In this document: positions 25,224-30,523 of the stretch, piece by piece | Layout: every line of letters starts with the position of its first letter | Numbering within the stretch: position 1 is the stretch's first letter | Source: Alkanindiges illinoisensis DSM 15370 | GTDB taxonomy: Bacteria; Pseudomonadota; Gammaproteobacteria; Pseudomonadales; Moraxellaceae | Length of the DNA stretch: 32,000 nt | Assembly: GCF_000619845.1 (NCBI RefSeq) | Contig: NZ_KK211037.1 | Span: 90,001-122,000 of the forward strand | Direction of reading: 5' to 3' | Program-made: the position numbers and the translations under genes | The notes under the pieces: generated by a model | Seen by the model: only the letters and a program-made list of their open reading frames with translations | Told to the model about the DNA's origin: nothing | Database searches by the model: none

Positions 25224-25856
25224 TTAAGCAGTTGCTTTCACATGCTGCAAGAACTGCTGGGTTGGGGTTTGAAAATAAATATCAAAACTGGCACTCACTG
25301 TTTGATCTGCCTGACTGAATTTTTTAAAAATGGTCGTGAGCGGCGCAATATAAGTATTCATCCACTCACTTGTAGAGCGACATTGCTGCGGATTGCGTAA
25401 ACTTTGCTGCAAATGTATAAGCTCCTGATAAATTGGGCTGATGTCCTCATTAAATACGAATAATTCCATGGTCATCGGGTCGATTGCATTGACCACAATA
25501 TCTTCTGCAAATCTGCCCACCGTCTTTAGGCGAATGCCTGAACCAGTAAAACAAGAATAAAGCAGCCGGGTTTTTTCAAGTTGTGCATGCTCACCAATCT
25601 CCAGACGCCTTGCATCACAGGCATCACGCAATAATGCAGGTAATTGCTGAGGATTATTACTTTGTTGAAAAGATTTAAAAATTCGTTCAAGTGTAAGGCT
25701 TTCACCCGTACCAGTTATTATGCCCTGCTGCCAGAAACGGATTTTTTGTAAGGTATCGGCATGGCGACTCTCAGCCAAACTGTTTTCAATTGTCATGCGA
25801 TTGTCGGCAGCCACTACTACACTGTCTTCAAGCTGGATTGCAATAATAAAAGTCAT
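25224..25856 (-). CDS. hypothetical protein with proteasome-beta/HslV-like (Ntn-hydrolase) N-terminal signature
   Basis: A 210-aa ORF whose sequence from residue 2 is TFIIAIQLEDSVVVAADNRMTIEN...LQKIRFW..GIITGTGESLTLERIFKSF...FTGSG. It aligns by eye to Thermoplasma beta ([24 protein letters not shown]...KKLFQI) and HslV ([21 protein letters not shown]...KKVRRL...[20 protein letters not shown]...IGSGG). Confidence 0.55.
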   Translation of the reverse strand: MTFIIAIQLEDSVVVAADNRMTIENSLAESRHADTLQKIRFWQQGIITGTGESLTLERIFKSFQQSNNPQQLPALLRDACDARRLEIGEHAQLEKTRLLYSCFTGSGIRLKTVGRFAEDIVVNAIDPMTMELFVFNEDISPIYQELIHLQQSLRNPQQCRSTSEWMNTYIAPLTTIFKKFSQADQTVSASFDIYFQTPTQQFLQHVKATA

Positions 25857-25885
25857 TTGGTAAAAATTCAGAGTTTGGTTAGAAT
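25857..25885 (+). promoter_or_regulatory. candidate sigma70 promoter for the VgrG-tail/toxin/immunity operon
   Basis: TTGGTA (25857-25862), a 17-nt spacer and TAGAAT (25880-25885), about 50 nt upstream of ATG 25934. Confidence 0.35.
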
Positions 25886-25933: not shown

Positions 25934-26377
25934 ATGAATCAACAGCCAGCCTTCAATAGTTTGGAGATTGCCACGCCTGTATTAAGTGCAGGCGGCTCAC
26001 AAGTCAAAATCAGTGCTAAAGGCATTGAAGTGATTACTGGCGGCAAGTTTGAAGCCAAAGCCGGGCAGCATCAGTTTTTGGGCGGGGAGAAAATTGATAT
26101 TAGCGTACCAGTATTACCGAAATTTCAGAATAAAAACTGGATTGCTCTGGAGCATCTGGATGCAGATAACCGGCCATTTGCTAATCTGGGCTATAAAATA
26201 TTCTTTGAAAATAATCAGACGATAGAGGGCAAACTTGATCAGCAAGGTAAGGCTTATCATGAAAATGTGCCGGAGCAAGCCATAAAAGTAGAATATGAGG
26301 AAAATACCACAATTAAAGATGAGCCTTGGGATACTTATGATTCTGTACTGGCTCAACTGAATAAGTTTGAAAAATAA
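25934..26377 (+). CDS. stand-alone VgrG C-terminal fragment-like protein with small beta-rich tail domain
   Basis: Residues about 15-63 (VLSAGGSQVKISAKGIEVITGGKFEAKAGQHQFLGGEKIDISVPVLP) read like the last repeat of the VgrG beta-helix/DUF2345 region (compare GGAYLKLEGGNIEL..PG.F.VKA..H.F.GP). The tail contains GYKIFFENNQTIEGKLDQQGKAY, a motif typical of cargo-binding extensions. An in-frame stop at 25901 shows there is no longer vgrG reading frame upstream. Confidence 0.65.
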   Translation: MNQQPAFNSLEIATPVLSAGGSQVKISAKGIEVITGGKFEAKAGQHQFLGGEKIDISVPVLPKFQNKNWIALEHLDADNRPFANLGYKIFFENNQTIEGKLDQQGKAYHENVPEQAIKVEYEENTTIKDEPWDTYDSVLAQLNKFEK

Positions 26378-26401: not shown

Positions 26402-27946
26402 ATGACAGATTTTTTACCCTCAAAGAAAGACTTATTAAATGCATTAGCTTCTATTGCCGCACCTGTTAATAAAGCAATTCAAAAAGGTCAGGAAACGCTT
26501 GAGGATATTGCTGAATGGTTATGGGTAGTTATTCAGGGAGATTTTGCCGAGGAACAAAGCACTGCACAAATTGCCACAGGGACAGTTATTTCAATGATTC
26601 CCTTTGTGGATCAGATCTGTGATGTACGTGATCTTTGTGCGAATTGCATGAAAATTAAGGAAGATATTAATAATCCTTGGGTATGGGTTGGTTTAATCCT
26701 CACCTTAATTGGTTTATTTCCTGTTTTGGGTTCACTGTTTAAAGGCATTTTTAAAGTCATTCTGGCACCTGTGCGCCGTTTTATGCTGCGGCCTGCTACC
26801 AAAGCGCTTCAGTTTACAGGGGGCAATATTTATAAAATGGCTGAACCCGCCATTGAAAGCGGAATTACCGAGCTAAATAAATTTCTAGCCCGTCCAGCTG
26901 TTAAAAAAGCTATTAAAAGTAAAGGCATTACGAATATTTATAAATCCATTGCAACTAAAATTCGTGAAGTAAAAGCAGTTATTTCTACAAAAGAGTTGCT
27001 AAGTGTTTTTGACAAATTACTGGGTTATCTTAAGGAAACCGTTAATTTTATAGATAAATATGCCAGTCGCGGGGTGGGGATTAAAGCAAAAAATATGCTG
27101 AAAGACGTGGTTGAGATAAGAAATCTAGCCAATCAAAAGCTGGGTACATTTTTAAAACCAATACAAGATTTTTTAGAAAAGCTGGCAATCAGAATAGATA
27201 GGGAAAGTGATCAGGCTTTTAAAGCAACGACGAACGTGAGGAATTTGACGCAGTTTAGAAGAGTTTCCGAAGCCGAAGAGTTAGCAGCATTTAGAAAGAA
27301 TAAACCAAATTGGGTATATAAAAAGGTGAAAGGACGTACGTTACCTTTTGAACCCGCAAAAGTAAATCCTAAAACAGCAGTGACACCTTTTCATCCTGAT
27401 CTTAGTGATACGCAGCCTGCTTTAAAAAGCGGTTATGAGCATCCTTTAAAAAGCAAGTACAACACCTTTGCTGAAGGTTTAATTAAGGATAGAGTGTTTC
27501 ACGAAGGTGAAGTTTTGGTAAGAGTTGTAGCACCAGGAAATTTAGATAACAGTATTTGCTGGATGAGAAAATCCGAGTTTTTAAAATTAAAAAGTCGTGA
27601 AGAATGGCGTGATAAATTTGCGGTTTGGGCGAAGTGGAACACGAATGGTGAGTACCTTGAATACACGGTACCTAAAGGAAAAAAGCTTTATGCATGGGAA
27701 GGCCCCGCTGCCTCTCAGCAAGAGGCTGAATTTTATTTAAGAGGTGGTGGCATACAAATTGTTTTAGACCCAGATGACCTTATTTCATCGGGCTTAAGTA
27801 AACGTAAATTAACCGGTTGGGGCTATGGTACAGACTCGTCGATTGGTGAATTCTCCGTGGTTGGTGTGCCTACATTACAGACCAATCTAGGAGATTATAG
27901 TTTGGCTCCGCGCTTAGAGCATAAACCTCAGACTACAGGACATTAA
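26402..27946 (+). CDS. putative T6SS-associated effector/toxin of unassigned family (N-terminal conserved motif plus TM segment, Lys-rich helical middle, C-terminal toxin-like domain)
   Basis: 514 aa. The N-terminal region reads WLWVVIQGDFAEEQSTAQIATGTVISMIPFVDQICDVRDLCAN and is followed by the hydrophobic WVWVGLILTLIGLFPVLGSLFKGIFKVIL (about aa 93-120). The C-terminal domain (about aa 355-470) contains GEVLVRVV...WAKWN...YLEYTVPKGKKLYAWEGPAASQ...GGGIQIVLDPDDL. Its position after a VgrG-like gene and before a tightly coupled small gene supports the call. Confidence 0.55.
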   Translation: MTDFLPSKKDLLNALASIAAPVNKAIQKGQETLEDIAEWLWVVIQGDFAEEQSTAQIATGTVISMIPFVDQICDVRDLCANCMKIKEDINNPWVWVGLILTLIGLFPVLGSLFKGIFKVILAPVRRFMLRPATKALQFTGGNIYKMAEPAIESGITELNKFLARPAVKKAIKSKGITNIYKSIATKIREVKAVISTKELLSVFDKLLGYLKETVNFIDKYASRGVGIKAKNMLKDVVEIRNLANQKLGTFLKPIQDFLEKLAIRIDRESDQAFKATTNVRNLTQFRRVSEAEELAAFRKNKPNWVYKKVKGRTLPFEPAKVNPKTAVTPFHPDLSDTQPALKSGYEHPLKSKYNTFAEGLIKDRVFHEGEVLVRVVAPGNLDNSICWMRKSEFLKLKSREEWRDKFAVWAKWNTNGEYLEYTVPKGKKLYAWEGPAASQQEAEFYLRGGGIQIVLDPDDLISSGLSKRKLTGWGYGTDSSIGEFSVVGVPTLQTNLGDYSLAPRLEHKPQTTGH

Positions 27947-27951
27947 AAACA

Positions 27952-28905
27952 ATGAAAAATTATAGCATTAACCCGAAAGAAGCCTATTTATTAGAGCAGT
28001 TTAGTTCCCTACAGTTTTTTGAAACCATGCGAAATAACTATCATCTTTTTTTAGATGGTTTGGAAGAGTTATTTGAAATTTATATGCATAACTTACCTTA
28101 TAATTTACGAGATTTACCATTACCAGAACAGGCTGATATTAACTGGGGTGGGACTGTCTTGCCGAATTTGCGCGGTACTATGGATCGGATTAATTATGCG
28201 TATGCCAAAATCAAAGCAGGCGATTTTACTTATTTAGATTGTGTTGGAGAGATTCGTTCCAATGATAAAGGTTTAAGTGAGTTTTCTCCGCACTGGATGG
28301 ATGATTTACCCACAGATAAGGTTTGGCAAACTTTTGATTATTATTCGAAAGCAAAGCAGTATGCTTCGATTATTGAATATACATATCCCACATCTTGGAA
28401 GAAAGACTTCCTTGCTAAAGAATTCCCCAGTTTAAGTCTATTTAGTAATATTGATATAGAGTTGCCAGCCTCCTATCCAATTTATCGCATTAATCCTGAG
28501 ATAAAAATTAAAACAGGAGAAAAAGTAGTTCAAAAAGGTATATATATCTGTGAAGAATTAGACATGGGCTTAACATTTATTGCATTTAGTCCGGAGAAAG
28601 ATAATGGTTTAGCACCTGAATACACTCGTCGAAATTCTGAGACGGGTGAAAATATGTACTTTGAAACTATGTGGACTTTGGTTGAACGAATTGCCGATGA
28701 AGGGGGATCTACTGAAACTATTCAGGCTGAAAACTTAAAAGGTTTTGGCGGAGAGATTTGCCCATACTCAGGCCAGTGGTGGAGTCCTGCTAATCAATCA
28801 GAAAAACGTTATTTTGAGCAAGGTGATACTTTTCCTAAACTGAAAAACAATTTCTGGGGTAAAACCATTTGGTATCTGGAAGTGACCAATCAGATTAAAG
28901 ATTAA
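27952..28905 (+). CDS. putative cognate immunity protein (cytoplasmic; C-terminus reminiscent of Imm72-type domains)
   Basis: The start is 5 nt after the upstream stop. There is no signal peptide or TM segment. The C-terminal GEICPYSGQWWSPANQSEKRYFEQGDTFPKLKNNFWGKTIWYLE has the conserved Cys/Trp/GxxxW pattern I associate with polymorphic-toxin immunity domains. This is from recall and is unverified. Confidence 0.5.
   Translation: MKNYSINPKEAYLLEQFSSLQFFETMRNNYHLFLDGLEELFEIYMHNLPYNLRDLPLPEQADINWGGTVLPNLRGTMDRINYAYAKIKAGDFTYLDCVGEIRSNDKGLSEFSPHWMDDLPTDKVWQTFDYYSKAKQYASIIEYTYPTSWKKDFLAKEFPSLSLFSNIDIELPASYPIYRINPEIKIKTGEKVVQKGIYICEELDMGLTFIAFSPEKDNGLAPEYTRRNSETGENMYFETMWTLVERIADEGGSTETIQAENLKGFGGEICPYSGQWWSPANQSEKRYFEQGDTFPKLKNNFWGKTIWYLEVTNQIKD

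Positions 28906-29614: not shown

Positions 29615-30523
<909 letters not shown>

Follow-up and report, generated by a model that had tools for sequence, protein, structure and literature searches.

A predicted TNT-like NAD(P)+ glycohydrolase domain on a putative VgrG-linked effector of Alkanindiges illinoisensis

Gene layout around the effector

The window analysed here, i.e. the whole stretch of 32,000 nucleotides (nt) from Alkanindiges illinoisensis DSM 15370 (contig NZ_KK211037.1, positions 90,001 to 122,000), holds on its forward strand a tight unit of three open reading frames (ORFs), the middle one of which encodes a protein of 514 amino acids (aa). This protein is probably a T6SS (type VI secretion system) effector whose C-terminal domain is a toxin of the kind known from tuberculosis necrotizing toxin (TNT), that is, a glycohydrolase of nicotinamide adenine dinucleotide and its phosphate, NAD(P)+ (hereafter NADase). 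It shares 100% identity with WP_026472243.1, annotated in Alkanindiges illinoisensis as a "hypothetical protein". A 147-aa ORF precedes the effector gene with a gap of 24 nt, and a 317-aa ORF, coding for the putative immunity protein, follows it after 5 nt; the features of the unit are collected in Table 1. The promoter-like site listed there is a weak match within a region that yielded fewer sites than shuffled sequence, and is given for its position alone.

The same gene order is observed across the family. The synteny comparison covered 84 related loci, and the VgrG count was limited to the 63 of them whose flanks were long enough: in 62/63 the end of a VgrG homolog lies just upstream of the effector, and an immunity homolog, often as tandem paralogs, lies directly downstream in 83/84. 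The Ralstonia trio is embedded in a complete T6SS cluster, and the effector gene follows vgrG with none in between in the window, in the Acinetobacter locus L001 and in the Ralstonia locus L004. The features by which T6SS linkage is recognised (vgrG, hcp or PAAR plus a downstream immunity gene) are found in this family, and relatives fused to Hcp and to PAAR also occur. Taken together, the upstream VgrG, the downstream immunity homolog and the lack in the latter of a signal peptide or hydrophobic segment are the hallmark of a cargo effector that is linked to VgrG and paired with a cytoplasmic immunity protein.

Concerning the 147-aa ORF, its product matches Pfam DUF2345 at positions 115-150 of 151 (expectation value, E, 8.3e-7) and corresponds in alignment to residues 808-938 of the VgrG of L001 (938 aa). 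An intact copy of this ORF, sharing its start context (..KANKMNQQ..), is present in Alkanindiges hydrocarboniclasticus (L005 5533-5976, 87.8% identity), and another in a Moraxellaceae metagenome-assembled genome (MAG; L062 2987-3430, 79.6% identity), where the adjacent effector is 52.8% identical to that of the window. The ORF might be a remnant that has been conserved, or else an adaptor that stands alone, and it is possibly not debris: it is intact in three Alkanindiges/Moraxellaceae genomes while the adjacent effector fell to 53% identity.

Table 1. Features of the effector unit, in window positions (residue numbers are those of the encoded protein).
Feature	Position	Strand	Basis
Promoter-like site (TTGGTA-17-TAGAAT) ahead of the three genes	25857..25885	+	consensus scan
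147-aa ORF, putative VgrG C-terminal remnant (end of DUF2345 plus C-terminal extension)	25934..26377	+	Pfam, alignment
514-aa effector ORF	26402..27946	+	
Effector N-terminal all-helical region, residues 1-273	26402..27220	+	full-length AF2 model
Effector linker, residues 274-349	27221..27448	+	alignment indels, AF2 model
Predicted TNT-like NAD(P)+ glycohydrolase domain, residues ~350-480	27449..27841	+	AF2 models, Foldseek
R374 codon, invariant Arg on beta-strand	27521..27523	+	alignment of 124 copies, model
W402-R403 codons, invariant pair on helix 399-406	27605..27610	+	alignment of 124 copies, model
Q439 codon, nearly invariant Gln, base of predicted cleft	27716..27718	+	alignment of 124 copies
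G448-G449-G-I-Q452, glycine cradle and proposed catalytic-site Gln	27743..27757	+	alignment, model
Effector C-terminal tail, residues 481-514	27842..27943	+	pLDDT <50 in both models
317-aa putative cytoplasmic immunity protein	27952..28905	+	position, hydropathy, synteny
Immunity N-terminal module, residues ~24-142	28021..28377	+	iterated profile, BLASTP
Immunity C-terminal element, residues 257-310	28720..28881	+	NCBIfam NF041834
AF2, AlphaFold2; pLDDT, predicted local distance difference test.

Conserved residues and predicted fold of the C-terminal domain

A preliminary description of this DNA, made from the letters and their reading frames, had placed a possible TNT-like toxin domain at 27464-27811, translated in frame as TFAEGLIKDRVFHEGEVLVRVV...GGGIQIVLDPDDLISSGLSKRKL. 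The translation and the ORF list put this segment where it was said to lie in the 514-aa protein, and the residue numbering is also right, R374 and Q452 corresponding to codons 27521-27523 and 27755-27757, respectively. The motif elements proposed there, i.e. G369-x-x-L-x-R374, an aromatic stretch (W402/R403/W409/W412), Y418-x-x-Y421-x-V-P-x-G426, G434-P-A-A-x-Q439 and G448-G449-G-x-Q452, are all present and in the order given; the third Gly of the proposed GGGxQ motif varies among relatives, though, and the "D-L-hydrophobic tail" is conserved in the close full-length family alone.

Conservation was counted over 124 near-complete domain copies, one per 50%-identity cluster, some columns holding 122-123 copies. 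R374, W402 and R403 are each found in 124/124 copies, and Q452 in 122/122, this column being always Gln and never Glu. Glycines G434 (123/124), G448 (121/123) and G449 (120/122) and the glutamine Q439 (118/123) come close to invariance. The conserved motif is GGxxQ and not GGGxQ, its third position being occupied by G, A, R, S, Y or W, and the family also has an invariant set of its own, W402/W412/N413. R374 stands in the context L-(Y/V)-R-V-(V/I), without a preceding Asp and without a following Gly. In the full-length AF2 model R374 belongs to a strand (E371-376), R403 to a helix (H399-406), and Q452 to a further strand (E451-455), just past its start. Just before the tail, inside the toxin-domain part, T471-x-W473-G-Y475 is invariant in the full-length family alignments, and G488-x-P490-x-L492 is conserved within the tail itself, although the tail is disordered in both models. 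Shorter relatives (P0248, P0237) terminate right after a T-G-W motif.

Two AF2 models were used. That of the domain covers residues 345-514, was built on alignment A2 with 34 homologs, and has a mean pLDDT of 74.5, with ~85 over residues 345-475 and the last ~40 residues disordered; the full-length model has a pLDDT of 80.9, rising to ~90 for the toxin domain. The order of secondary-structure elements, a1-b1-b2-b3-a2-a3-b4-b5...b7 (helix, three strands, two helices, four to five strands), fits the palm domain, a twisted antiparallel sheet, as described for the Serratia toxin Rhs1-CT, where alpha2 and alpha3 join beta3 to beta4 (PMC10539506).

The domain model was compared by Foldseek with 350,542 PDB chains, and 50 matches were listed (E up to 1.7). 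All eight matches at probability >=0.93 are TNT-like NAD(P)+ glycohydrolases, and the ninth has a probability of 0.06. The best of them is 6XTD_A, Serratia Rhs1-CT/Tne3 (E 8.8e-5, root-mean-square deviation 3.3 over 116 columns, template modelling (TM) score 0.61 on the target), followed by the Aspergillus fumigatus NADase (8PMS/8PMR/6YGF, E 1.8e-3 to 7.7e-3), Tse6 (4ZV4_D/4ZV0_A, E 1.1e-2 / 2.0e-2, probability 0.98-0.99, TM score 0.52 on the target for 4ZV0_A) and Fusarium NADase I (8R15, E 2.5e-2). With the full-length model, Tse6 is the sole high-probability match (0.97), and the control library of viral structures, BFVD, gave no significant match. An identification of 6XTD as an ADP-ribosyltransferase (ART), Photorhabdus Tre23, was ruled out, the entry being given as the Rhs1-CT NADase of Serratia marcescens Db10 (PMC10539506); with this identity the reading of the fold moves from ART-like to NADase-like.

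Relation to TNT-type NADases and alternative activities

The features critical for TNT are F727, the DRxG motif (D756-R757-x-G759), whose Arg binds the NAD+ phosphates and is essential for NAD+ hydrolysis, the QRxL motif, whose R780 sits on a helix and is salt-bridged to D756, the glycine cradle within loop 811-822, and Q822 (PMC6398120). Hagan et al. (2023, PMC10539506) find a single residue strictly conserved across TNT-type NADases, a Gln (Q1452 in Rhs1-CT) that holds the nicotinamide ribose in position. In the window protein R374 (strand), R403 (helix), G448-G449 and Q452 (strand) follow each other in the same order as R757, R780, the cradle and Q822 of TNT, and the spacing is similar, with 29 against 23 residues from the first to the second Arg, 45 against 38 from the second Arg to the cradle Gly, and 4 in both from the cradle Gly to the Gln (G818...Q822 in TNT). 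By order and spacing, the protein has both the glycine cradle and the conserved Gln of TNT-type NADases. We therefore propose R374 as the counterpart of R757, contacting the NAD+ phosphates, R403 as that of R780, and Q452 as that of Q822/Q1452, the catalytic-site Gln. The Q439..G448/G449..Q452 spacing also resembles Q1440..G1446..Q1452 of Rhs1-CT, where Q1440 would be the equivalent of Q439.

A sequence bridge to the Pfam TNT family (PF14021) is offered by one relative, P0248, whose residues 109-197 match positions 2-76 of the 88 of that profile (E 3.8e-4, 21.3 bits). It is the sole PF14021 match among the 124 relatives scanned against Pfam, located by halving the set; an attribution of the match to relatives carrying "PGGGxQ" was wrong. 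The profile of the toxin domain matches P0248 at residues 102-192 (E 2e-15), a stretch that covers its R, WR and GGxxQ. For 124 proteins, all Pfam families pooled, ~0.05 matches this strong are expected by chance, and a chance match to TNT in particular, over the same region, has a far lower probability. When close relatives of P0248 were sought, in the hope of TNT neighbours annotated in Pfam, P0248 itself was all that came back.

The suggestion of the preliminary description, a TNT-like toxin that targets NAD, is hence supported by the fold matches, by the invariant R374 and Q452 (and R403), and by the bridge through P0248, with PF14021 itself unmatched by the window protein. The structure prediction and Foldseek comparison that it had put forward as a check were run, and brought up TNT-like NADases, Tse6 included, and no classical ART among the matches listed.

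Several observations weigh against this assignment. Neither the 514-aa protein nor its residues 333-514 match PF14021, even at E<=1, and the protein is not a Pfam TNT member in the strict sense; P0248 itself, with 21.3 bits, stays below the gathering score of 27 bits. Searched as a whole against Pfam, NCBIfam and PDB sequences, the protein gave chance-level matches only (H-NS, PorH, small terminase, Spc25), the close-family profile A2 found chance matches only among PDB sequences (adseverin, tau), and the broad profile A6 had zero matches there, so that the link to NADases is invisible at this level of sequence search. The Foldseek scores are moderate (TM 0.3-0.6) with a predicted structure as the query, and Mycobacterium tuberculosis TNT (4QLP) and Tne2 (6B12) are absent among the 50 listed PDB matches (E up to 1.7). 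Literal DRxG and QRxL motifs are missing, with (Y/V)RV and W-R-x-x-F(-A-V) in their place, and for R403 an acidic partner like D756 of TNT was not identified, which counts against the assignment if such a partner is needed. The equivalences of R374 with R757 and of Q452 with Q822/Q1452 are drawn from order, spacing and secondary structure. A last point concerns this copy of the effector, whose delivery is uncertain because the upstream VgrG is reduced to a remnant of 147 aa.

Among characterised toxins, five T6SS NADase families are recognised, namely Tne1 (Tse6), Tne2, Tne3 and Tne4 (Serratia Rhs1-CTs) and Tne5. The best structural match, Rhs1-CT of S. marcescens Db10 (6XTD), has the same order of secondary-structure elements, and in both proteins a Gly and, before it, another Gln come ahead of the late-strand Gln; the structural alignment nevertheless shows only 20% identity, and sequence profiles detect no similarity. 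As proposed for the window system, Rhs1-CT is a T6SS cargo that works in the cytoplasm, with a soluble immunity protein whose gene lies downstream. However, it forms the tip of a PAAR-Rhs cage protein, whereas the window domain lies on a 514-aa stand-alone cargo protein with a helical N-terminus, and Tne3, Tne4 and Tne5 are all Rhs-borne while the window protein has no Rhs/YD repeats. Pseudomonas aeruginosa Tse6 (Tne1; 4ZV0/4ZV4) is matched structurally by both models, at 11-12% identity in the structural alignment, and shares the concept of hydrophobic N-terminal segments joined to a C-terminal NAD(P)+ glycohydrolase (predicted in our case) meant for the target cytoplasm; it carries, though, an N-terminal PAAR domain and depends on an Eag chaperone, whereas the window protein has no PAAR match and there is no gene between its vgrG and the effector. 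As for the TNT family proper (M. tuberculosis CpnT/TNT, AfNADase 6YGF, Fusarium NADase), its fungal members match structurally, and the two Arg, the glycine cradle and the terminal Gln come in the same order, but delivery is by ESX and the outer-membrane CpnT, or by fungal secretion, and not by the T6SS as for the window family. The domain is thus best described, from the models and alignments, as a new, unnamed family of putative T6SS NADase effector domains, similar to the Tne families by every computational criterion applied; no paper describing it was found in the literature.

The fold alone does not settle the chemistry, and other activities have to be weighed. It is unlikely that the domain is an ART that modifies a target protein or nucleic acid, as Tre1 does on FtsZ and Tre23 on 23S rRNA. 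TNT-like NADases and ARTs have a distantly related NAD+-binding split beta-sheet, and an Arg on b1 followed by a late-strand Gln/Glu fits ARTs too; Tne5, moreover, is an NADase with an ART-type beta-sheet arrangement, unlike Tne1-Tne4. However, no ART is found among the 50 listed PDB matches, the position of the catalytic Glu of ARTs (R-S-E, H-Y-E), which opens the late strand as part of ExE/QxE, is held by Gln in 122/122 copies, as in TNT-type NADases, and there is no conserved ExE or STS-like motif. We see an equally slim chance that the family, lacking DRxG and QRxL and having W402/W412/N413 of its own, either forms a distinct product or transfers ADP-ribose, or else that the 147-aa ORF is an adaptor to a VgrG encoded elsewhere. 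Quite improbable is a domain that consumes NAD(P)+ but yields another product, such as a cyclic ADP-ribose isomer or one of base exchange, and owes its toxicity, or a signalling effect, to that product and not to depletion. In enzymes with a different fold (CD38-type ADP-ribosyl cyclases, the Pantoea ARC toxin) cleavage of NAD+ can indeed give cyclic products, and nothing computed here distinguishes products, but the characterised TNT-like members (TNT, AfNADase, Tse6, Tne2 and Rhs1-CT) are all plain NAD(P)+ glycohydrolases, and the TNT-type group is defined by activity on NAD+ and NADP+ but not on NADH or NADPH.

Family spread, delivery and immunity

Full-length homologs of 475-515 aa, with identities down to ~40%, occur in Moraxellaceae (Acinetobacter, Psychrobacter), Burkholderiales (Ralstonia, Cupriavidus, Massilia), Rhodocyclales, the Luteimonas/Lysobacter group and some Enterobacterales (Enterobacter among them). 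In 185,579 species-representative genomes 138 stretches encode relatives, and the A2 domain profile finds 494 proteins at E<=1e-3 among 1.84 billion cluster representatives (50% identity), the hosts taking in further Enterobacterales (Serratia, Pantoea, Rahnella); all relatives with a source name are annotated as "hypothetical". Along the whole effector, conservation falls into two blocks, W39-K118 and T355-Y475, with a variable linker between them (residues 274-349) that has indels in the full-length alignment, low pLDDT at 274-284 and little secondary structure over 300-350. The domain ends <=40 residues from the C-terminus in 146/165 matched stretches (149 proteins among the matches listed). 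A Pfam scan of the 124 relatives, with follow-up scans, shows it behind a variety of N-termini, i.e. PAAR (P0237), DUF4280, PT-TG pre-toxin (P0236), Hcp (P0259), DUF6861 (P0180, P0174) and peptidoglycan-binding (P0246), and no Rhs family is among the 25 most frequent Pfam families. In P0259 (766 aa; locus L086 5001-10374) Hcp is fused to the whole effector, helical N-terminal region and toxin domain alike. Compared with its homolog in the Moraxellaceae MAG (L062 3442-4933), the window effector is 61% identical over the N-terminal 300 residues and ~35% over the C-terminal domain in a rough global alignment; as with polymorphic toxins, divergence appears quicker at the toxin end than at the delivery end.

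Residues 1-273 are all-helical (H8-H273) in the full-length model, with pLDDT mostly 85-95, and include a hydrophobic stretch of ~30 residues (~93-124; Kyte-Doolittle average >1.4 in windows centred on 100-115). Here lies the most conserved stretch of the full-length family, residues 39-125 (26516-26776), with the pattern W-x-W-x-V-x-x-G-D-F ... S-M-x-P-x-V-D-Q-x-C-D-x-R-D ... G-x-x-P-x-x-G-S-L-x-K-G. The region matches no Pfam family, with weak DUF4112 matches only, and it has no meaningful structural match, the Foldseek search with the full-length model being swamped by non-specific helical proteins (formin FH2, 14-3-3). By eye, S-M-I-P-F-V-D-Q-I-C-D-V-R-D of the window resembles I-P-V-V-G-D...R-D of P0259. 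This motif is also reminiscent of the Pfam PT-TG pre-toxin consensus, and the short relative P0236 does match PT-TG. By analogy with Tse6, we infer that the N-terminal region serves in loading on the spike and in carrying the toxin across the inner membrane of the target.

The immunity gene had been described as signal-less, and hydropathy agrees: the 317-aa protein has no signal peptide and no hydrophobic segment, its maximum 19-residue Kyte-Doolittle average being 0.9. It has no Pfam family match and no detected similarity to any solved-structure chain, the PDB set including RhsI1 and Tsi6. The protein looks two-part from its sequence relations. Residues ~24-142 recur as stand-alone proteins of 137 aa and 138 aa after PAAR-type (L085) and DUF6861-type (L087) toxins, with E 5e-12 and 4e-11, respectively, for the iterated immunity profile, and E 5e-6 in pairwise BLASTP for the L085 protein. 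This module accompanies the toxin domain into the PAAR and DUF6861 loci, as expected if toxicity resides in the C-terminal domain. Residues 257-310, in turn, match positions 229-280 of the 282 of NCBIfam NF041834 (TaeI) with E 1.2e-9, far under the family cut-off. TaeI serves as immunity partner to the DNase effector TafE of Acinetobacter baumannii (PMC9973263), and since the C-terminal element resembles the end of this partner of an unrelated toxin, it looks generic rather than toxin-specific. In L086 the Hcp-fused P0259 is followed by three tandem Imm72 (PF15584) proteins of 324-325 aa, to which the window immunity protein has no BLASTP similarity; the iterated profile gives a weak match in their central part (E ~1e-5).

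In L007, L009, L011, L012, L067, L084 and others, 2-6 tandem immunity paralogs and orphan C-terminal fragments lie downstream of the effector, and a second effector copy is found in four loci (L023, L032, L041, L051). Tandem paralogs and extra effector copies of this kind are typical of immunity-array growth.

It is likewise quite improbable that the helical, hydrophobic N-terminal region does the killing, as a membrane-disrupting or pore-forming effector with the C-terminal domain as a non-enzymatic binding or regulatory module: residues 39-118 are indeed the most conserved part of the family and come with the ~30-residue hydrophobic segment, and the full-length model has a very weak Foldseek likeness to the alpha-pore-forming toxins AhlB/SmhB, but these matches (probability <=0.1) do not rise above noise, the immunity protein is soluble, without transmembrane segment or signal peptide, the C-terminal domain is met again after N-termini of unrelated kinds (PAAR, PT-TG, DUF6861, peptidoglycan-binding) with absolutely conserved polar residues, and the immunity N-terminal module tracks this domain and not the N-terminal region. 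The immunity proteins known for T6SS toxins that target membranes reside in the membrane or the periplasm themselves.

For a TNT-like NADase effector the following course of action can be proposed. The helical, partly hydrophobic N-terminal ~270 residues would load the effector on the spike and, after delivery to the periplasm of a rival, would help the C-terminal domain cross the inner membrane, by analogy with Tse6. Residues 350-480 would form a TNT-like "palm" domain that binds NAD+/NADP+ and hydrolyses the nicotinamide-ribose bond, and depletion of NAD(P)+ would lead to growth arrest. Within the site, R374 on its strand and R403 on its helix may hold the pyrophosphate and the active-site architecture, G448-G449 may form the cradle beneath the substrate, and Q452 would position the nicotinamide ribose. 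The producer would be protected by the cytoplasmic 317-aa protein, whose N-terminal ~140-residue module may plug the active-site cleft; in Tsi6 (K62), Tni2 (R153) and RhsI1 (H131) an immunity loop puts a basic residue into the cleft. The ORFs, their conservation, the synteny, the predicted fold similarity and the modular distribution of the domain are what we observe, and NADase chemistry, the part played by single residues, the passage across the membrane and the way immunity works are what we infer.

Toxins that degrade NAD(P)+ rank with the most potent weapons that bacteria use on each other and, if this assignment is true, the family would stand as a sixth one beside T6SS Tne1-Tne5. It is invisible to Pfam and NCBIfam and yet widespread, and naming it would improve the annotation of T6SS arsenals in genera of clinical and agricultural relevance. 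The effector would be a VgrG-linked cargo protein with a conserved, membrane-active-looking N-terminus, not a PAAR or Rhs fusion, and its putative immunity protein is of a new, two-module kind. On this compact system it could be tested how an effector without PAAR gets through the inner membrane of its target, and which residues beyond the single conserved Gln TNT-type catalysis needs. Its interest is that of a moderate specialist kind, with a use in annotation, and in principle it is unsurprising.

Two neighbouring genes complete the picture of the locus. Divergent from the effector unit, a 210-aa ORF (25224-25856, - strand) has weak N-terminal matches to the proteasome beta-subunit family (PF00227, E 0.0098; TIGR03634, E 9e-4). 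Two genes downstream of the effector-immunity pair and on the opposite strand lies nadC (29615-30499; TIGR00078, E 6.7e-95), which encodes the carboxylating nicotinate-nucleotide diphosphorylase of de novo NAD biosynthesis. Its place near a putative NADase pair is probably a coincidence, since the gene tables of the Acinetobacter (L001-L003) and Ralstonia (L004) loci show other neighbours.

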